From IMG/VR virus record IMGVR_UViG_2859788636_000006: 23,303 nucleotides of DNA. One strand, written 5' to 3'. This document shows, in pieces, positions 1,065 to 7,696 of this stretch; position 1 is the first letter of the stretch, and each line of letters starts with the position of its first letter. The notes beneath the pieces are model-generated. The model saw only the letters and a list, made by a program, of their open reading frames with translations, did not search any database and was not told the origin of the DNA. The position numbers were made by a program, and so were the translations under genes. This DNA is from a virus (Duplodnaviria; Heunggongvirae; Uroviricota; Caudoviricetes).

Positions 1065-1856
1065 TTAATATCCCATTGCAATGTAATACGCATCAGCAGA
1101 TGAACCATATCCTGAACCGGGCGACACTGTAATATCAAATCCAGTGTTATGGACATTTGTCGCCGATACAGTCGGCTGCCCTGACGCGCCAGTAACGTTC
1201 AATGTAACTGTGACAGCAAGGACTCTTGAGAATGTCATCGGGAACCTCATCCCGTATGTTGAAGATACATTCGGGGAGCCATTCAACTGACCGCACTGTA
1301 AAATTAATCCAGACGGAAATTTTTGCGCAGCAGCCGTTGCGGTATTACTTGACGCGAACAGGCTCATATCAGGTATCTGATTCGCCCCTGTACCTACATT
1401 CCTTTTAGCCGCTTCTCCCAAACCAAGGTATGTGAGAATGTCAGCAATAGTATTTTTCCCAATAATGTCACGGCCAACAGAAGTTAAATCAGTCTGCGCT
1501 GCTGTATCATTTCCAGTGAAATATGGGAGTTTATTTGCACCTGTTGCGAGCCCAGCTAATGCCGACAGCGTGGCATCAAGCGCCTGGAAATCTTTCCCGA
1601 AAGCGGTCCCCATTTTGGATATAAACCCGTTCAGGTCTCCATCATCAAGCACATCCAGCCTGCTTTTGTTGGCGGTGTACTGCGCCAACGCTGCCGCGAT
1701 AAAGCTGGCTTGCCGAATAGCTTTGTTGACCTGTGCGCTGGATGCTTTACCTGCCGTAAACCCTGAAAGCAGAGCCGGAAGTGCTTCCCAGTCAGCTTGT
1801 GAGGTGACGTTAGCGTTCGGATCAAGCGCGAAAGGTTTAAAGTTGTTTATTGCCAT
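1065..1856 (-). CDS. Tail fibre protein (side tail fibre, Stf / Mu S-like)
   Basis: Position between baseplate genes and tfa; Gly/Ser/Thr/Ala-rich sequence ending YYIAMGY; likely ATG at 1856 overlaps the upstream stop (TAATG); the ORF track's alternative start is 1874. Confidence 0.65.
   Translation of the reverse strand: MAINNFKPFALDPNANVTSQADWEALPALLSGFTAGKASSAQVNKAIRQASFIAAALAQYTANKSRLDVLDDGDLNGFISKMGTAFGKDFQALDATLSALAGLATGANKLPYFTGNDTAAQTDLTSVGRDIIGKNTIADILTYLGLGEAAKRNVGTGANQIPDMSLFASSNTATAAAQKFPSGLILQCGQLNGSPNVSSTYGMRFPMTFSRVLAVTVTLNVTGASGQPTVSATNVHNTGFDITVSPGSGYGSSADAYYIAMGY
1413..1438. other. Candidate DNA-invertase crossover site (hix/gix/cix-like 26-bp site) inside the tail-fibre gene
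   Basis: TTCTCCCAAACC-AA-GGTATGTGAGAA matches the hixL sequence as recalled (TTCTTGAAAACC-AA-GGTTTTTGATAA) at about 20 of 26 positions, including the AAACC-AA-GGT core; half-sites are near-palindromic; lies about mid-gene. No partner site or invertase gene in the window. Confidence 0.35.
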
Positions 1857-2536
1857 TAGAGTATTGTCCCCCATGCTCCAACATCGAACCCGCCGATGTA
1901 TTCGTTATCCATATCAAACCCAAAGAATTTAGAGCCCTCGGATGGTGCTTCTACCGAAGGCGTTTCAACATCACCGGCCCATACGCCAGCTGCTTTAACG
2001 GTGAGATAGCCCTGTTTGATAGCGGCAATCAGTTCAAGAGACACATCAGAAATATCAGTCTCGGGGAATACCCAAACCGATATCGTCATGTCCTGGTTGT
2101 CGACAATTTGCATCCTCAGGCCTGAGCCTTCAGTCGCAGCGTCAAGGATGGGAGGCAGAGAGTCGTTCCGACCGTCCCAGTTGTTGATAGCGATTTTCGC
2201 TTTCAGAATGATGCGGTACGTCTCATCGCTTAGCGTCGTATAGCCAGAATCAGGATCATATGGCCCTTTCCAGATGCCCTGGTCATACCCAAGCCCGTCA
2301 GTGTCCCAGCTGAAATAAACTCCGCTAATTGGCTGGCTGACTATGCGACTGCGTCCGATCCACAGACCGAGGATGTCGAGCTGTACACCGACAGCAGTAT
2401 CAATATCGAAGGCTGTTATAAGCCCTGACATAGTGCTGGACACATCAATCAGCGGGCGGGTGCTCAGATCTATATGGTCAAAAAAGAGTGGCTTGGTAGC
2501 GTGGTAGTTAGTGATCAGTTCGGTGTATTTGCTCAT
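1856..2536 (-). CDS. Baseplate/tail protein following baseplate J (YmfQ/XkdU/gpI-like, putative)
   Basis: 226-aa ORF; ATG overlaps the baseplate J stop (ATGA); synteny J -> this gene -> tail fibre. Family assignment from memory, not searched. Confidence 0.5.
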   Translation of the reverse strand: MSKYTELITNYHATKPLFFDHIDLSTRPLIDVSSTMSGLITAFDIDTAVGVQLDILGLWIGRSRIVSQPISGVYFSWDTDGLGYDQGIWKGPYDPDSGYTTLSDETYRIILKAKIAINNWDGRNDSLPPILDAATEGSGLRMQIVDNQDMTISVWVFPETDISDVSLELIAAIKQGYLTVKAAGVWAGDVETPSVEAPSEGSKFFGFDMDNEYIGGFDVGAWGTIL

Positions 2537-3732
2537 GAGGTCACCGTGATACTGATATTCGCGGTGCTACAGGACGCAGAAGCATCATAGGCAATATCAA
2601 TGTTTGATGCCGATACGCTGCCAGACGACTTACCGATCAGCAGGTCGGTAATATCGTAATAGCGGGCATTCCCGCCGCTCACAACGCCGAGGTTTGCCGG
2701 GGAATAAATACGGCTCAGCAGAACGTCGTCGCCAATTGTTAGGCCATTTATATAATCGGCAACAGCCTGTTTAATCTGCTCGCCGATTTGAGAGGTATAG
2801 CCGGTAAAAACTTTCAGGGTAATGGCTACGAAAATTGGCACATCGGTAGAGCGCGAAAAACTGATGACGTGTGGATTACCGTAAGTATCCGGCACCGTGA
2901 CAGAAGTTTTACCGTAAGTTGCGGTTCCCTGCCCTTTACTCCCCCGGATTGTTTGGGCTATCTCGGTAACATCCCCTCCATCGACGATGGCGGAAATAGA
3001 GTGTGGCGGCAGCCCGTTGCTGTCGGTTGCCCCAGTGTCGTTCTCATATAGTTTGTGACGTGTCACGCCAGCAACATTAGCGATAGCACCGTCGACACCT
3101 TCAAACGGTGTGATCGATGGTAGCGCGACGCTTTGCCCCTGCCGAATGCGCAGCTCTGCGTCGGTTTCGGCTGGTGAACCGACAGTAGCCGCAACTGGAT
3201 TGGTTACCGACACCCAACCTCGGGTCGGGGTGTTGATAGTGGTAATAGTCCCGGCCAGCGCCGCAACCGAACCGCTATTCGCACATGTGGCCGTCACCAG
3301 CACAGTACCATCAACGCCGATCGCTACACTTGCGGGAAAATTCCAGATAATGCCGTTTTTATCCCGTGCGGAGCCATTCGTGATAGTCGTGCCTGCCGTA
3401 CCGGTTAACAGAAGGTCAGCAGTAGAGTTTGTCGCTACTTTTCGCGTGATCCCGTTAATTTTCACATTGCTGCTAAGCGCTGCGGCCTGCGCTGTCGTCG
3501 GTGAAAAAGAGTTGTAGATCCCGATAGCGGTGTTGTTAGCGTCATGCACGGCAAGAGCCACCAGCGCGACCATCTGCCCGTCTTTGCTGTCTGGTTCGAG
3601 GTAGGCATCACTACCGTAAATCTGCCTGAAATAGCTGGTCAGTGTATCTAGGATTGTCTGGTAATCAGGCGCACTAATCCCCTGGGCGGTTACCGTTGCC
3701 GATAGCCCCAGCGTGTCGAGGTTCAAAGCCAT
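2533..3732 (-). CDS. Baseplate J-like protein (gp47/gpJ family)
   Basis: 399-aa ORF in canonical position between the small wedge protein and the tail-fibre genes; size and sequence character fit the Baseplate_J family. Confidence 0.65.
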   Translation of the reverse strand: MALNLDTLGLSATVTAQGISAPDYQTILDTLTSYFRQIYGSDAYLEPDSKDGQMVALVALAVHDANNTAIGIYNSFSPTTAQAAALSSNVKINGITRKVATNSTADLLLTGTAGTTITNGSARDKNGIIWNFPASVAIGVDGTVLVTATCANSGSVAALAGTITTINTPTRGWVSVTNPVAATVGSPAETDAELRIRQGQSVALPSITPFEGVDGAIANVAGVTRHKLYENDTGATDSNGLPPHSISAIVDGGDVTEIAQTIRGSKGQGTATYGKTSVTVPDTYGNPHVISFSRSTDVPIFVAITLKVFTGYTSQIGEQIKQAVADYINGLTIGDDVLLSRIYSPANLGVVSGGNARYYDITDLLIGKSSGSVSASNIDIAYDASASCSTANISITVTS

Positions 3733-4086
3733 TTATGCCTCGCTTGTTACAGTCGTCTGGCCGTAGATTGTGTCAATGGAGGAAGTGAAGGTGACGCGAC
3801 GGCTGGTGCCGTCATAATTGGTATCGAAGGAAAGAATCGACAGAACGCCCGGTGTATCCTGTATGCGTTCGCGTATAGCCAGGATGTAGACATCTGATCG
3901 CTGCTTCCCAAGCACTGACTGAACATACGGCGTGCCTTCCGTCAGATCGAGAAACCACTGACCGCGCCACAGCTCGAAACGGGTTTTTACGGCCTGGGCG
4001 ACACATTCCGGACTGTCGATAAGGAAAGTATCGTCACCCTGGCCGAAAGTGTAATCGCCTTCAGTATCTTCGCGACGGTATCGCAT
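3733..4086 (-). CDS. Small baseplate wedge protein (gp25/gpW-like or XkdS-like, putative)
   Basis: 117-aa ORF; start overlaps the spike stop (TAATG); position between spike and baseplate J as in Mu/P2/PBSX-type baseplate modules. Confidence 0.5.
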   Translation of the reverse strand: MRYRREDTEGDYTFGQGDDTFLIDSPECVAQAVKTRFELWRGQWFLDLTEGTPYVQSVLGKQRSDVYILAIRERIQDTPGVLSILSFDTNYDGTSRRVTFTSSIDTIYGQTTVTSEA

Positions 4087-4826
4087 TATTGCGGCCCTCC
4101 GGTAGTTCCCCCGCCAGTCTGTACTCCGCCATGTTTATGCGTGGCGACACTGATACCAGAAGCTGTTACGTCATTCGTTACCATCACCGGCCCAAGCATC
4201 GTCGCAGTACCGCCGCTTTCGCCCATTCCCTGAGACAAGTTGCCATTAATCGTTACGTTGCCGTTCAGCGTGATAGTCGGGGATGTGATTGTCGTTCCAC
4301 CTTCAGCCGTAGCTGTAAGCTGGCCCGGTGTTTTAATGGTGATGTTATGTCCTGCGGCGACTTCTACAAACGCCGCACCATCATCGGTTCGCAGCTGCGC
4401 GGCGCTGGTACTGATACCGCTGATTTTCCGTGCTTGCGACTGCGGGCCAACGATGGCGAACGCATCAGATAAGTCATGCTGGCGCGGGTCGACGGTCTCC
4501 TGAACGCCGCCGCTCTGCCACCAAAAATCGATGCAACGGTCAGCAAAAATCAGGAGGCACTCGTCGCCTTCTTTTACCGGAAAGGTCAGCGTGCAACCGC
4601 CGCCGCGCGGGAAGATGACCGGCACATCCACCAGCGGTTTTAATTCGGTGGATCCATCGCCAACAATACCGCGTAGCGCCACCTCTACTGTGCAGGTAAC
4701 AGTCTCAGGATCGAACGACTGAATGATGCCGGGCATCGCTACGCGCATCTGGGTAGACACCGAATCGGCAATGGCCTGCGCGGTCTGCTGCTCACCGCCG
4801 ATCTGTGATTGAGTTGGAATTGGCAT
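4086..4826 (-). CDS. Baseplate central spike protein (gpV / Gp138-N-like OB-fold with Gly-rich C-terminal region)
   Basis: 246-aa ORF; N-terminus MPIPTQSQ...MPGIIQSFD typical of spike N-domains; C-terminus Gly/Thr-rich; GGGGG Shine-Dalgarno 4 nt upstream. Confidence 0.6.
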   Translation of the reverse strand: MPIPTQSQIGGEQQTAQAIADSVSTQMRVAMPGIIQSFDPETVTCTVEVALRGIVGDGSTELKPLVDVPVIFPRGGGCTLTFPVKEGDECLLIFADRCIDFWWQSGGVQETVDPRQHDLSDAFAIVGPQSQARKISGISTSAAQLRTDDGAAFVEVAAGHNITIKTPGQLTATAEGGTTITSPTITLNGNVTINGNLSQGMGESGGTATMLGPVMVTNDVTASGISVATHKHGGVQTGGGTTGGPQ

Positions 4827-4834
4827 AAAACCCC

Positions 4835-4860
4835 CATAAAAAAACCAGCCGAAGCTGGTT
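4835..4860 (-). terminator. Intrinsic terminator on the minus strand (7-bp stem, UUCG tetraloop, 7-8 U tract), 17 nt upstream of the spike start codon
   Basis: Minus-strand RNA AACCAGC-UUCG-GCUGGUU followed by UUUUUUUAU; read directly from the sequence. Confidence 0.6.
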
Positions 4861-5048
4861 TGGTATCAATTATCTCTTAGTAACTAAGCTACATCAGTGT
4901 GAAGTAAGGCTTTTCCGCTGCAATGGCACACATTCACAAGGTGTATTAGGATATGTTTGCAACAAGTAAGCATTGAAAATCAATTTCAGCCATGAAGCCG
5001 CCATAGAGTGGACCTGCACCATCGCATTATTGACTACAGGAGTAACAA

Positions 5049-5339
5049 ATGGGATTTAGATTTCGTAAAAGAATCCGGATTGCGCCCGGACTCGCGATCA
5101 ACATTAGTAAAAGCGGAGTAAGCACTTCAATTGGTGGTAAAGGTTCCACCATTAACATCGGGAAAAAAGGCGTAAAGATGACAAATGGCCTTCCCGGCAC
5201 GGGGCTGTCGCATACCACTAACCTTTACTCTCCCGGGAAATCGACAGAAAAAAAACAACTTACTCATAAGCAAAAAATAATTAGAAACATCCTGTTCGTA
5301 ATTATTGTGTTTATAATAATTAAAGCTCAATATTTTTGA
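5049..5339 (+). CDS. Small C-terminally membrane-anchored protein with DUF4236-like N-terminal motif; insert cargo gene of unknown function
   Basis: 96-aa ORF; AGGAG Shine-Dalgarno 6 nt upstream of ATG; N-terminus MGFRFRKRIRIAPGLAINISKSGVSTSIGGKGSTINIGKKG matches the DUF4236 motif as recalled; C-terminal hydrophobic segment NILFVIIVFIIII; markedly AT-rich; opposite strand to all flanking phage genes; followed by a terminator. Confidence 0.7.
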   Translation: MGFRFRKRIRIAPGLAINISKSGVSTSIGGKGSTINIGKKGVKMTNGLPGTGLSHTTNLYSPGKSTEKKQLTHKQKIIRNILFVIIVFIIIKAQYF

Positions 5340-5344
5340 CGCAT

Positions 5345-5375
5345 GCCCGCCTATCTGGCGGGCTATTTTACTTTT
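5345..5375 (+). terminator. Intrinsic terminator for the plus-strand cargo gene (GC-rich hairpin plus U-rich tract), overlapping the 3' end of the convergent minus-strand gene
   Basis: GCCCGCC-tatct-GGCGGGC followed by TATTTTACTTTT on the plus strand, 5 nt after the stop at 5337-5339; on the minus strand the hairpin is followed by an A-rich tract, so termination is likely plus-strand only. Confidence 0.6.
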
Positions 5376-5707
5376 CGGCAGTCGTATGTTGCATACTGAC
5401 GCGGCGAATCCATGCTGGCTTGCAGCCACTGTGCGTTGAGAATGGCTTTGCCGTTTCGATTGATGTACTCAAGACCAACCCATCTTCCAGGCTGATCGGT
5501 AGCCATACGCCAATCCATCTTGATATTGTTATAATCGCCTTTGTTTTTCAGGAAGGTGATTTTTTGCATTTCTGGCTTTGCGCCATTGATTCTGGCTAAG
5601 CCATCATCTGCCCAATGGATTTTAAAATCACCACATTGCTGATCCGCAAAAGCGGGTGCTGATATAAGCACCGCGAACACGGTAACAGTGCAAAGTAAAT
5701 GTCTCAC
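5363..5707 (-). CDS. Secreted/periplasmic protein of unknown function (signal peptide, two Cys), embedded in the baseplate module
   Basis: 114-aa ORF with GTG start 12 nt after the hub stop, preceded by a GAGGTGG Shine-Dalgarno; N-terminus MRHLLCTVTVFAVLISAPAFA-DQQ is a canonical Sec signal peptide with AxA-type cleavage site; Cys near the mature N-terminus and near the C-terminus; GC lower than flanking structural genes. Confidence 0.65.
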   Translation of the reverse strand: MRHLLCTVTVFAVLISAPAFADQQCGDFKIHWADDGLARINGAKPEMQKITFLKNKGDYNNIKMDWRMATDQPGRWVGLEYINRNGKAILNAQWLQASMDSPRQYATYDCRKVK

Positions 5708-5719
5708 GGCCCCACCTCA

Positions 5720-6784
5720 CTAATTCGTCGTCCCTTGCATTGCTTTCGGGCTATAAAGATCACGAGCGCCACGCGCAAAACACATCAAATCCATGTACCA
5801 CGCCTGACCTCTGGTGTCGCCAGTATAGTCGATAGCTTTGACGATATAAACGCCATCCGTCGCAATGCTGGCAGCCTGTGACGTCGTGCCGGTCAGCACA
5901 CGGTTGCCGTTCTCTTCTGTTTCGGTGATACGCCCGGGCGACTGTGCTATTTCGCTATTGCCGAGCGTGGCGCGGTACACCGAAGCCTGATCGAGCTGGA
6001 TAAGACCATTAATACGGATGTTTGGGTTTATCAGGCATCGCACGTTTACTCCGCCACCCATCGTTTGTTGCGGCATACCGATCAGGCCAGTATTGGCATT
6101 CAACACAATGGCTTCGTGAATATATTTATCCTCCGGCACCATCTGGACCTGACCATCCACCAGTTGCCATGTCGCTTTGCACTGCGCAGCAATATTATCC
6201 ATCACGTTGCGGCTGGATGAGTAAATCGCGCGGCCACGAGGAAACACGGTATCAGGAAAATCGCCGGTAATGCCCTGTGTCACGCCGAACGCGTTGAAAT
6301 CCTGCATCGTCGCCCGGTGCAGATCCGCAACGGTATATCCAGCGGCAAGCGTGGTGATGGTGGTCGCATAGAGGAACGCTTCGTGATCACCAATGGCCTG
6401 AATCAACACCCAGGAATCCGTAATGTTGTCCTTCCCGGTGACGGTGAAGCGAATATCACCGTCAAAAATCAGGCCGTAGTTCTGACCGTTCACCTGCCCT
6501 ATCTGGTCTGGTGAAATCTCCCGGGACACACCAACCTGGCTCGCATCAACATCCGGCGCTATACCGTCATACCCGGCAATGATGCGAATTTTGGCAAACT
6601 CCTGCCCAAGTATCTTGTTCGTGGTATCGGTCGAAAGGTTGTAAATTTTCACGTTCGCCACGCGCGGCCAGCGTGTGTCTGCCCACTCGATCTGGAACGT
6701 GACCTTAAAGTCAGACAGGGAAACGCCCTGCCCGTTCTGGTCCAACAGTTGCAGCTCAAAATGGCGCATCCAGTTAAGAGACAT
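5720..6784 (-). CDS. Baseplate hub / tail assembly protein (gpD / XkdQ / Mu gp44-like, putative)
   Basis: 354-aa ORF in the position between tape-measure-proximal genes and the spike; assignment by synteny and size. Confidence 0.45.
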   Translation of the reverse strand: MSLNWMRHFELQLLDQNGQGVSLSDFKVTFQIEWADTRWPRVANVKIYNLSTDTTNKILGQEFAKIRIIAGYDGIAPDVDASQVGVSREISPDQIGQVNGQNYGLIFDGDIRFTVTGKDNITDSWVLIQAIGDHEAFLYATTITTLAAGYTVADLHRATMQDFNAFGVTQGITGDFPDTVFPRGRAIYSSSRNVMDNIAAQCKATWQLVDGQVQMVPEDKYIHEAIVLNANTGLIGMPQQTMGGGVNVRCLINPNIRINGLIQLDQASVYRATLGNSEIAQSPGRITETEENGNRVLTGTTSQAASIATDGVYIVKAIDYTGDTRGQAWYMDLMCFARGARDLYSPKAMQGTTN

Positions 6785-6786
6785 TT

Positions 6787-7092
6787 CTACTCCTGTACGA
6801 AAATGAGGTGGCTGTATGTGCCGAGGTTGGTTTTGGTGGGCTCGTCTGGTGCGCCCTTATCGGTCGCCACCACCAGCGCGCCATCAATGCCAAGCTGTGG
6901 ATATTGTCGTAAAAGGTTTACGCCGGTCAGTAGAGGTACGCCAGAGAGAAGCGCGGCACCGCCGCTATCCATCACGTCCATAATCCAGCCAGCCGCATCA
7001 CGCCAGATGATCCTGAGTGTATACGTGGTATTGCCCAGCAAAACTCGGAACTGCTGATTGTCAGGAGAAAGCGGTATTTCGTTAAACTGCAT
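6787..7092 (-). CDS. Small tail/baseplate protein, unknown family
   Basis: 101-aa ORF with ATG start, tightly packed between the 200-aa protein and the hub gene. Confidence 0.4.
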   Translation of the reverse strand: MQFNEIPLSPDNQQFRVLLGNTTYTLRIIWRDAAGWIMDVMDSGGAALLSGVPLLTGVNLLRQYPQLGIDGALVVATDKGAPDEPTKTNLGTYSHLIFVQE

Positions 7093-7093
7093 A

Positions 7094-7696
7094 TCATCCC
7101 CCGAATGCTGATGTAACGCTTCCGCCCAGCTGGCTCAGCAAGGATTCGTTTGGCGGTGTAGTGGATTTCATCCCGGAATTCTGCACCGCCGATGTGCTGA
7201 CGCCATCCTGCATATCTGATTTATCTGCAACGCTAACGCTCTGCGTCTGCGACATGATCACTTCACGCAGGGTAAGCGTGCAGTTCAGCACGTTCTCGCT
7301 GGTTTTATCCGTTGTCACCTCGATGGCTCGCACCAGCATATTGCTGTAAACCCGCTTTCCGGTCACTACATCGAACGGCACCCTAGAGGACTGGAGATCC
7401 AGTAGTTGCTGATAGGTCTCTTTCGGGCTAAGTCCGGCGCTGAGGCCGATTGACGATGTATCAATGAAGTCCAGCAACGAACCGCCACCTGCGAAGCCGC
7501 ATTCCATCGTGACTTCGCTGGGGCGCTTATACGCATGATCGGCGATGAAACCCGACGCGCTATTCGTTGTTGGCTTCTCCACCGGGTGCTCAGTAATTTC
7601 GAGCGCATCAGAATGCTTTTCAGAAACAACCACGCTGGGGATTAATATTCCAATTCGCCGGGATTGCTGGCGAAAAATTGCTGATAAAATATCCAT
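7094..7696 (-). CDS. Tail protein downstream of tape measure (putative baseplate assembly / XkdP-position protein)
   Basis: 200-aa ORF; ATG overlaps the tape-measure stop (TAATG); function by position only. Confidence 0.4.
   Translation of the reverse strand: MDILSAIFRQQSRRIGILIPSVVVSEKHSDALEITEHPVEKPTTNSASGFIADHAYKRPSEVTMECGFAGGGSLLDFIDTSSIGLSAGLSPKETYQQLLDLQSSRVPFDVVTGKRVYSNMLVRAIEVTTDKTSENVLNCTLTLREVIMSQTQSVSVADKSDMQDGVSTSAVQNSGMKSTTPPNESLLSQLGGSVTSAFGG

Follow-up and report, generated by a model that had tools for sequence, protein, structure and literature searches.

Phage morons reportedly include bor and lom of lambda, whose products are lysogenic-conversion factors, and the HK97 gp15 moron, which encodes an inner-membrane superinfection-exclusion protein. 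Accessory and defence hotspots are said to occur in P2-like phages and P4-like satellites, and fixed hotspots between conserved phage genes have been the most productive source of new anti-phage and phage-phage conflict genes. In P22, the immI region (arc, ant, mnt) is embedded in the late operon beside the tailspike gene. Exclusion proteins matched to a tail or receptor are encoded near tail genes (T5 Llp, phi80/N15 Cor, T4 Sp and Imm, P1 Sim, TP-J34 Ltp); they are small exported or lipoprotein products, each blocking a step of the tail component next to which it is encoded. Orphan immunity arrays are found in polymorphic toxin systems such as CDI (cdiA-CT/cdiI) and Rhs.

Here we compare with these systems a locus in 23,303 nucleotides of tailed-phage DNA (the window), namely the interval that separates the baseplate hub gene from the spike gene in an E. 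coli prophage. Its anatomy, the presence/absence pattern of its genes, cassette borders, export signals, predicted folds and terminator covariation were computed here. Literature searches for baseplate-associated morons and for SEN34 found no description of this hub-spike locus. Very probably the segment is the accessory compartment in the tail module of a Brunovirus/SEN34-like myovirus, and it is built of two layers that differ in history: a resident gene for an exported protein, which we call P114, and a slot for swappable cargo, held in the window by a DUF4236 gene. That degree of confidence covers the architectural and evolutionary part; for the whole explanation, with the functions proposed below, we estimate a probability of about 0.5.

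The left anchor of the interval is the hub gene (5720-6784, minus strand, 354 aa), which matches PHROG 196 'baseplate hub' (E = 3e-82), NCBIfam orf58_phage_fam and, weakly, Pfam E217_GP41. The right anchor is a gpV-like spike gene (4086-4826, minus strand, 246 aa; RBS GGGGG at 4831-4835), identified by a Pfam spike N-terminal domain family (E = 9e-42), the GpV Apex motif and TIGR01644 phage_P2_V. The 893 bp between them (4827-5719) have a GC content of 0.436, compared with a window mean of 0.529 (sd 0.031 over 893-bp windows; z = -3.0), and only 0.2% of 893-bp windows are as low. Resolved by part, GC is 0.39 in the DUF4236 gene, 0.415 in the DUF4236 cassette and 0.46 in P114, compared with 0.535 in the hub and 0.570 in the spike gene. 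Two genes converge inside the gap, P114 (5363-5707, minus strand, 114 aa) and the DUF4236 gene (5049-5339, plus strand, 96 aa), the latter antisense to the structural operon. The initial annotation had read the same picture from the letters, a low-GC segment of about 0.9 kb that splits hub from spike and carries two small convergent genes, one for a signal-peptide protein and the other for an opposite-strand, DUF4236-like membrane protein. All of this is borne out: the open reading frames and coordinates agree, P114 begins with a canonical Sec signal peptide, and the plus-strand product matches PF14020 with 73.6 bits (gathering cut-off 27) and ends in a hydrophobic helix.

The variable slot extends from the P114 stop codon to a conserved terminator hairpin just ahead of the spike RBS. 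It holds at least 17 unrelated cassette types between flanks that are >95% identical among relatives, and is free of cargo in two loci; the hub-spike gap measures 398-2464 bp across loci. DUF4236 occupies 25 of the 84 slots in close loci; other cargo includes Phd/Doc, Arc with a P22-type antirepressor, EACC1, the signal-peptide proteins sp106, sp128 and sp166, and lipoproteins. Searches of Pfam, NCBIfam and PADLOC with both window proteins and 20 cargo proteins returned few informative matches, and links of the cargo to known conflict systems are limited to Phd/Doc, EACC1 and a faint HEPN match. Judged from these alignments, the junction of hub and spike is a hotspot at which accessory genes are exchanged by recombination. 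It is defined in widespread enterobacterial temperate myoviruses (SEN34/Brunovirus-like and Wanchaivirus-like), including many prophages of E. coli, Salmonella, Klebsiella, Serratia and Pantoea. It can be searched for by its sharp borders, which are the P114 stop and, at the opposite end, the spike RBS with the terminator ahead of it; its cargo is mostly orphan.

Like the P2/P4 hotspots, this slot has a fixed position between conserved core genes and exchanges unrelated cassettes, toxin-antitoxin systems among them; unlike those hotspots, it lies inside a SEN34-like baseplate operon and is bounded by a resident exported protein and a terminator. The slots of two relatives, L019 and L043, carry an Arc-like repressor plus P22-type antirepressor/Rha genes, and like P22 immI they represent terminator-insulated regulatory cargo inside a late structural operon. 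The window's own cassette is a different one, and only a 36-nt Rha-like remnant is left (4862-4897), the 3' end of a cargo gene that is intact in L043 (BLAST to L043 at 4897-4726). A 42-aa open reading frame at 4894-5022 (minus strand) was rejected as a gene, as it has no family match and lies partly inside this remnant of another cassette.

The DUF4236 cassette spans ~510 bp (about 4850-5362). It assorts independently of the P114 variant, being paired with six P114 length/sequence variants, and it recurs in the same place, always antisense and convergent with P114, across three diverged lineages, represented by the window type, by LHM10-1 and by GZ7/AZ147. The DUF4236 copies of these lineages are 51-55% identical and their hubs only 62-64% identical; by this comparison, DUF4236 is no one-off acquisition. 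Residues 3-55 of the protein align to profile positions 1-54 of the 55 in PF14020, and the same domain is matched by ten PHROG families. Structure prediction gives a basic N-terminal domain folded as a six-strand beta-meander, a basic linker, and a C-terminal transmembrane helix at residues ~77-95 (nt ~5277-5333), for a predicted tail-anchored, N-in topology.

The only sequence upstream of the DUF4236 gene that is common to all three diverged lineages (the window compared with L113, L114 and L115) is TTGACTACAGGAG, the 5' UTR and RBS at 5030-5042 on the plus strand. A promoter would be expected farther upstream, at 4862-5029, and no sigma-70 consensus was found on the plus strand at 4862-5048. 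Downstream lies a GC-rich hairpin (5345-5363, plus strand) with a 7-bp stem, a folding energy of -16.7 kcal/mol and a folding z of -3.0; terminator scanning and folding place a T-rich tail on the plus strand only. This hairpin bounds the variable cassette on the left, and homology to relatives that lack DUF4236 stops at 5360-5379.

The cassette resembles morons in several respects: it is a small gene between structural genes, differs from them in GC and ends at a terminator of its own, has a small, predicted inner-membrane product, and is present in some relatives and absent from others. It differs from them in occupying a reusable slot, in its antisense orientation and in having no promoter found at 4862-5048, and its product is unrelated in sequence to HK97 gp15 or YebO. 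By its presence/absence pattern, the moron-type insert proposed in the initial annotation describes the DUF4236 cassette (25/84 slots, swapped or absent between >95% identical flanks) and does not describe P114, which is present almost throughout. Universal carriage of the same two genes by relatives had been named there as evidence against the proposal; we find that pattern for P114 and not for DUF4236.

The proposal that each gene has its own terminator likewise holds for one gene of the two. The hairpin at 5345-5363 serves DUF4236 and has no U tract on the P114 strand; the terminator on the operon strand lies beyond DUF4236 and, being conserved throughout the phage group, is not private to this insert. 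It is found at 4838-4861 (minus strand), reads AAACCAGC-TTCG-GCTGGTTT followed by a U run, and forms the right border of the cassette. It consists of an 8-bp stem, a UUCG loop and a U7-8 tract and ends 12 nt before the spike ATG (15 nt when the terminator is taken as 4842-4861); 22 distinct stems occur among the 107 of 109 loci that have it. In the covariation analysis, 97.6% of cells are paired, 3 of 6 pairs show compensatory double changes, and 0 of 500 shuffles score as high. On these comparative grounds the hairpin has the hallmarks of an intrinsic terminator and is conserved across the phage group. Late transcription would have to read through it to express the spike and downstream genes, presumably by antitermination; no Q-type gene was identified in a near-identical prophage, where a Q-like candidate has no Pfam match. 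An Rfam scan of 4700-5900 gave sub-threshold matches only (isrK at 23 bits, with a threshold of 50, Trp leader and rsmX), and a small RNA was rejected because all of them are driven by the terminator hairpin.

The resident layer is P114. Its gene starts with GTG behind an RBS (GAGGTG, 5713-5718), 13 nt after the hub stop, and its first 63 nt (5645-5707) encode the signal peptide. In each of the 40 aligned family members, a basic n-region is followed by a hydrophobic h-region and by an AxA site, which lies 2-6 residues ahead of an invariant cysteine; both Cys25 and Cys110 are invariant in this set, and the mature protein is predicted to form an 8-stranded beta-barrel with a Cys25-Cys110 pair. 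P114 directly follows the hub in 80 of 84 loci of close relatives and in 19 of 20 loci of other species, where hub identity falls to 53-65%, and the hub adjoins P114 in 80 of 80 P114-centred viral contigs. The isolated phages SEN34, Mulock and GZ7 carry it in this place too. Where hubs are 64-70% identical, P114 is 42-56% identical, a divergence that parallels that of the module. Because P114 is present across relatives and diverges in step with the module, we read it, from these comparisons, as a resident gene of the module. The exceptions are four close loci with other lipoproteins in place of P114 and Serratia sp. PL17, which lacks the P114 domain; in ten loci the domain is fused to a lipobox N-domain.

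P114 constitutes a small, narrow orphan family with no Pfam (E <= 0.1) or NCBIfam assignment, and PADLOC gave a chance-level Cas11a match only (E = 0.045). As an exported, disulfide-bearing protein with a predicted eight-stranded barrel, it has the shape of the PliC/MliC lysozyme-inhibitor-type proteins; no MliC Pfam match was obtained at E <= 0.1, and the SGSGA-type loop, the conserved inhibitory motif of PliC/MliC, is not visible in the P114 sequence. The cleavable Sec signal in all P114 members and the lipobox in the fusion variants speak against a virion or assembly protein, as do, for DUF4236, the antisense orientation and absence from most relatives. We infer that neither is a virion part.

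P114 is also linked to the end of the hub itself. The last ~15 hub codons (5723-5767, minus strand), which follow ...WYMDLMCFARG, are hypervariable: mean pairwise identity is 0.50 in this tail and 0.83 in the hub core, and DNA homology to relatives is interrupted within it, at 5749-5768. Another class of tail reads ...ASLNRTF. Similarity in the hub tail tracks that in the P114 N-region (r = 0.62) and not that in the hub core (r = 0.30). The alignments indicate that the hub tail is exchanged along with the 5' end of the P114 gene, as one mosaic block; since only the 13-nt spacer and the 63-nt signal-peptide segment separate the two, linkage alone can explain their co-variation. In phage E217, the homologous hub remains at the tube end once the tip is lost (PMC10329688). 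The tape measure has a lytic transglycosylase domain (TMP residues about 500-620), suggesting that the tail tip works in the periplasm. E217 gp42, which is also placed between hub and tip, was rejected as a P114 analogue, as it has neither a signal peptide nor similarity.

In some contigs (L118 and L119), 4-7 tandem P114 paralogs occur, each behind a hub 3' fragment. The L118 array comes from a single metagenome contig; two further assemblies share the start of the L119 array, in which a hub 3' end and the first paralog are followed by a hub 3' fragment and the second paralog, and this recurrence in three assemblies makes an assembly artefact unlikely for L119. P114 arrays are rare: none was found among the 80 P114-centred viral contigs or in the hub-centred close loci, which have one P114-family ORF each. 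Like the orphan arrays of CDI and Rhs systems, those of L118 and L119 consist of tandem, diverged small exported proteins, each after an upstream-gene 3' fragment with a variable C-terminus. Unlike in CDI and Rhs, the upstream partner is the 15-20-residue tail of a structural hub protein, not a toxin domain.

In the first layer as we propose it, P114 would be translated by way of its own RBS, beginning 13 nt downstream of the hub stop; Sec would export the protein, and in the periplasm it would form a disulfide-closed 8-stranded barrel, the resident unit being closed by the conserved terminator directly ahead of the spike RBS. In the second layer, recombination would swap whole cassettes between the P114 stop and this terminator; the ~510-bp cassette of the window would supply a tail-anchored DUF4236 protein of the inner membrane, from a gene that runs antisense to the late operon and has its own terminator. 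P114 may be an envelope protein matched to the tail module that hinders superinfecting phages with the same type of tail from penetrating the envelope, and the variable hub tail, exchanged with the P114 N-part, would be left as the exposed end of the tube in the periplasm once the spike has been released. As in the Llp, Cor, Sp, Imm, Sim and Ltp cases, P114 is a predicted exported protein, sometimes fused as a lipoprotein, that is locked to a tail gene, here the hub. It shares no sequence or specific fold similarity with them, and it is a predicted soluble beta-barrel in contrast to the helical Sp. Of the functions considered, superinfection exclusion at the envelope is the likeliest; for P114 it is a tentative assignment, with the odds somewhat against it. 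DUF4236 may be a moron-type inner-membrane protein expressed in the lysogen and acting in exclusion or abortive infection, which we consider doubtful. Neither protein resembles known exclusion or defence proteins in PADLOC (no match at all for DUF4236), Pfam, NCBIfam or PHROG annotation.

An unlikely elaboration is that the hub tail and the P114 N-terminal half form a polymorphic cognate pair, which would confer allele-specific, immunity-like superinfection exclusion from inside the baseplate operon. Periplasmic P114 of a lysogen or infected cell would bind the hub tail of a matching incoming tube after the spike is shed, jamming channel opening or tape-measure exit. If this were true, an arms race among related prophages would have left its footprint in the diversification of the paired alleles and in the orphan arrays of P114 and hub 3' fragments, the adjoining slot up to the terminator would take up further anti-phage cargo as a general landing pad, and DUF4236 would represent a new membrane-level exclusion or abortive-infection family.

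A near-universal, hub-coupled P114 is also what an accessory protein of assembly or infection would look like. P114 might be required by the phage itself, aiding its infection or lysis cycle from the periplasm, with DUF4236 still cargo; example roles would be shielding the infected cell wall from the progeny tail transglycosylase or conditioning the envelope. This has perhaps one chance in a handful, as four close relatives and Serratia sp. PL17 manage with other lipoproteins or genes in its place, no MliC/PliC family match was obtained, and allelic mosaicism and tandem paralog arrays are unexpected for a housekeeping helper. Alternatively, both genes could act in lysogenic conversion, as lambda Bor or Lom do, serving the host (serum resistance, adhesion, stress) with no phage as their target. 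Both products are predicted envelope proteins encoded in the tail-gene region of a prophage, and the slot also receives sp106, sp128, sp166 and lipoproteins; on the other hand, it also receives Phd/Doc, antirepressor and EACC1, and P114 is confined to this tail module and mosaic with the hub tail, which ties it to phage machinery rather than to host ecology and leaves host benefit a rather poor candidate. The recurrence of the convergent pair in three diverged lineages and the one hairpin common to both genes could instead suggest a two-component envelope system, in which P114 is a periplasmic sensor or binder and DUF4236 an inner-membrane effector; this is improbable, considering that P114 occurs without DUF4236 in ~70% of close relatives, that the cassette combines freely with six P114 variants, and that DUF4236 is widespread in bacteria and phages without P114. 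Most improbable is the initial model of a recent, single ~0.9-kb moron with two unrelated cargo genes between adjacent hub and spike genes, which would fit the low GC over the entire 893 bp, the convergent small genes and the hairpin terminators, and against which hub and spike are adjacent in 0 of 109 loci examined, P114 is nearly always present and co-diverges with the hub, and relatives replace only ~4850 to 5362.

The two-layer compartment offers the first clue from gene context to two families that are uncharacterised. One is P114, which is linked to the tail tip and allelically mosaic. The other, DUF4236, is a very widespread family with no published function found; our literature search returned a passing mention of DUF4236 and nothing for PF14020. 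DUF4236 genes occur in virulent phages too, so a lysogeny-specific role is not implied. For P114, the promoter scan of the minus strand gave TTTATA-17-TATACT inside hub codons, a chance-level hit; the synonymous codons that spell the TATACT hexamer are kept in many, but not all, lineages, a weak hint of a P114 promoter within the hub gene.

The structural operon lies on the minus strand of the window and proceeds from the tape measure (7696-9711), with its C-terminal lytic transglycosylase domain, through the genes for a Dit-like protein (7094-7696), a Pam3-type plug (6787-7092), the hub (5720-6784) and the spike (4086-4826) to gpW-like, Baseplate_J and DUF2612 genes, in that order. The window's prophage is 98.9% identical to one in E. 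coli TOK-001, a lambdoid-type temperate myovirus that adjoins yciI/tonB; Citrobacter phage Omnitron is its sole close relative among isolated phages. The tape measure has 671 aa in the window versus 755 aa in the TOK-001 prophage, and the transglycosylase domain covers residues about 500-620. The gap between hub and spike spans 893 bp at a GC content of 0.436, against a window mean of 0.529 (z = -3.0; as low a value occurs in just 0.2% of windows of that size), and holds two converging genes, as the initial annotation had described. P114, encoding a 114-aa signal-peptide protein (5363-5707, minus strand), begins with GTG behind a GAGGTG ribosome-binding site, 13 nt past the hub stop. The other gene (5049-5339, plus strand) matches DUF4236 (PF14020) at 73.6 bits (cut-off 27). 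The strong hairpin at 5345-5363 is followed by a T-rich stretch on the plus strand but not on the minus strand and therefore terminates DUF4236, while a second hairpin with a U7-8 run (4838-4861) lies on the operon (minus) strand, 12-15 nt upstream of the spike ATG; the assignment of one terminator to each gene thus does not hold.

Comparison with related loci gives good support for an architecture in which a resident exported gene is followed by a terminator-bounded cargo slot. We collected 8 annotated loci from E. coli or phages, 80 IMG/VR loci whose hub identity is at least 84%, 21 loci of other species (one genome per species), and isolated phages and more distant prophages. In none of the 109 loci that allowed placement of both genes are hub and spike adjacent, and across 84 close loci they are 398 to 2464 bp apart. 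Clustering of all gap ORFs places a P114-domain gene directly 3' of the hub in 80 of these 84, including 10 in which the P114 domain is fused to a lipobox N-domain in a 296-aa protein; in the remaining four, other lipoproteins (240 or 374 aa) are encoded. P114 is kept in 19 of 20 usable loci of other genera (Pantoea, Erwinia, Rahnella, Serratia, Yersinia, Trabulsiella and others), where its identity drops with that of the hub (42-56% at 64-70% hub identity), and it occupies the same position in Salmonella phage SEN34 (Brunovirus), Klebsiella phages Mulock and GZ7, and vB_EcoM-683R1. Conversely, the hub precedes P114 in every one of 80 viral contigs sampled around P114. This near-universal, hub-linked presence and parallel divergence argue that P114 is a resident of this tail module and not cargo, which replaces the earlier picture of a single insert with two cargo genes. 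In E. coli SY3626 (NZ_CP059283.1; L003 1567-2457) the fusion ORF is intact, as in all 10 loci; RefSeq annotates a 5'-truncated pseudogene there and leaves about 600 bp empty. A sigma-70-like TTTATA-17-TATACT element within the hub 3' end (5822-5850, minus strand) may be a promoter for P114; its TATACT, codons Y-T of D-Y-T-G, keeps its synonymous codon choice in most of the diverged relatives, loci L111-L114 and L119 excepted.

The cargo slot is sharply delimited. DNA homology between the window and relatives with other cassettes ends just past the P114 stop (5360-5379) and returns at the hairpin or U-run (4844-4861). Within these borders, antisense DUF4236 occupies the slot in 25 of the 84 close loci, followed by an antisense EACC1-domain gene with a 53-aa ORF (9 loci), signal-peptide proteins of 106 aa (8) and 128 aa (7), Phd/Doc (6), a 181-aa orphan (4), a 145-aa TM and Cys-rich protein (4), a 258-aa protein with a faintly HEPN-like 123-aa protein (3), and a 185-aa membrane protein with a 70-aa ORF (3). 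Several occupants are singletons, and two loci (L083, L085) are empty of cargo. In two others (L019, L043) an Arc-like repressor with P22-type antirepressor/BRO/Rha genes forms an immI-like regulatory module within the baseplate operon. The DUF4236 cassette is found with at least six different P114 variants, so cargo and P114 assort independently. The Rha-like gene that is whole in L043 has left part of its 3' end in the window, at 4862-4897, which shows that one cassette replaced another.

Diverged DUF4236 genes (51-55% protein identity) recur at the same position and in antisense orientation in E. coli LHM10-1, Klebsiella phage GZ7 (Wanchaivirus) and the Ecol_AZ147 type (about 34 of 5426 complete E. 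coli genomes), at loci whose hubs are 62-64% and P114 proteins 39-43% identical to those of the window. The three DUF4236 lineages have in common only the gene itself and a 13-nt ribosome-binding-site region, TTGACTACAGGAG. These comparisons indicate that DUF4236 at this slot is no recent one-off insertion; it is either an old occupant that was displaced repeatedly or a favoured cassette.

A GC hairpin and U-run stand directly 5' of the spike ribosome-binding site in 107 of 109 loci, both cargo-free loci included. There are 22 distinct stems, and in an alignment of 28 hairpin sequences 97.6% of cells pair, with compensatory double changes in three of six pairs, a level of covariation reached in none of 500 shuffles. 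The stem variant goes along with the cassette, so each cassette carries its own stem version, while the U-run and spike ribosome-binding site form the invariant border. We suggest that this hairpin ends the P114/cargo transcription unit and would keep transcription in the prophage state from reaching the spike and the baseplate genes beyond it. Late transcription would then have to read through it; an antiterminator for this step was looked for and not identified. A match to the Hfq-binding prophage sRNA isrK (4839-4921, minus strand) scores 23.4 bits in Rfam, below the gathering score of 50, reflects mainly the terminator stem-loop, and was rejected.

P114 homologues form 86 clusters, all from Enterobacterales and all annotated 'hypothetical', and only 56 matches were retrieved when 1.84 billion representatives were searched exhaustively with a profile. 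Sec signal-peptide features are seen in each of the 40 aligned members, in which Cys25 and Cys110 are invariant. The AlphaFold2 model (pLDDT 84) predicts an 8-stranded up-and-down barrel with no significant match in BFVD. The DUF4236 protein combines its domain with a variable basic linker and a C-terminal TM helix, an architecture kept across Proteobacteria, with SH3_3 domains added in some homologues. Its AlphaFold2 model (pLDDT 83) shows a six-strand beta-meander plus a helix, and its charge distribution predicts an N-in, tail-anchored topology. Virulent phages also carry DUF4236 homologues. We found no published function for DUF4236 in the literature and no PADLOC match for either protein. 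From localisation, tail-tip linkage, allelic mosaicism and arrays, and the kind of neighbouring cargo, we infer that P114 would act in the periplasm as an exclusion factor matched to the tail module, and that DUF4236 would be an accessory protein of the inner membrane, expressed in lysogens. Alternatively, P114 may be a phage-intrinsic helper or a transglycosylase inhibitor, or the locus may supply a host-benefit conversion factor; the two proteins may also act as a two-component system. The locus adds a new case to the known phenomenon of phage morons and accessory hotspots, and its value lies in a sharply defined hotspot that puts two uncharacterised families in a testable context.

A possible allele-specific pairing of hub and P114 adds further interest. 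Within a conserved backbone, the last 15-20 hub residues (5723-5767), the P114 signal peptide and the first ~36 mature residues (P114 N-region, 5537-5707) form a mosaic block, and very different backbones share the same hub-tail class together with the same P114 N-class. Pairwise similarities across 83 unique loci correlate between hub tail and P114 N-region (Spearman r 0.62, permutation p about 0.001), compared with 0.30 for hub tail and hub core, 0.37 for hub tail and spike N-terminus, 0.81 for hub core and spike N-terminus, and 0.67 for hub core and P114 C-half. By these values the mosaic block is decoupled from both hub core and spike. In Pseudomonas phage E217 the homologous hub stays at the tube end once the tip is lost (PMC10329688), so the hub tail would be reachable by a periplasmic protein during infection. 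Between the tail and the mature N-region, however, lie no more than a 13-nt spacer and the 63 nt that code for the signal peptide, so linkage alone can explain the co-variation, and we consider a cognate hub tail/P114 pair unlikely. Virulent E217 carries one gene, gp42 (L123 7595-8128), between hub gp41 and tip gp43; its product has no model in the virion cryo-EM structure, lacks a signal peptide and is unrelated to P114, and was rejected as a counterpart. In two contig families (L118, L119) the region between hub and spike is occupied by several diverged P114 paralogs in tandem, and 175-230 nt of the hub 3' end are duplicated in front of each. These arrays resemble the orphan immunity arrays of polymorphic toxin systems, an analogy which suggests that gathering P114 alleles is advantageous. 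The L118 array (1823-5935), seen in one metagenome contig only, has seven intact paralogs and one fragment; that of L119 (4330-6579) has four, and its start (hub 3' end, paralog 1, hub 3' fragment, paralog 2) is also present in two further assemblies (L120, L121).
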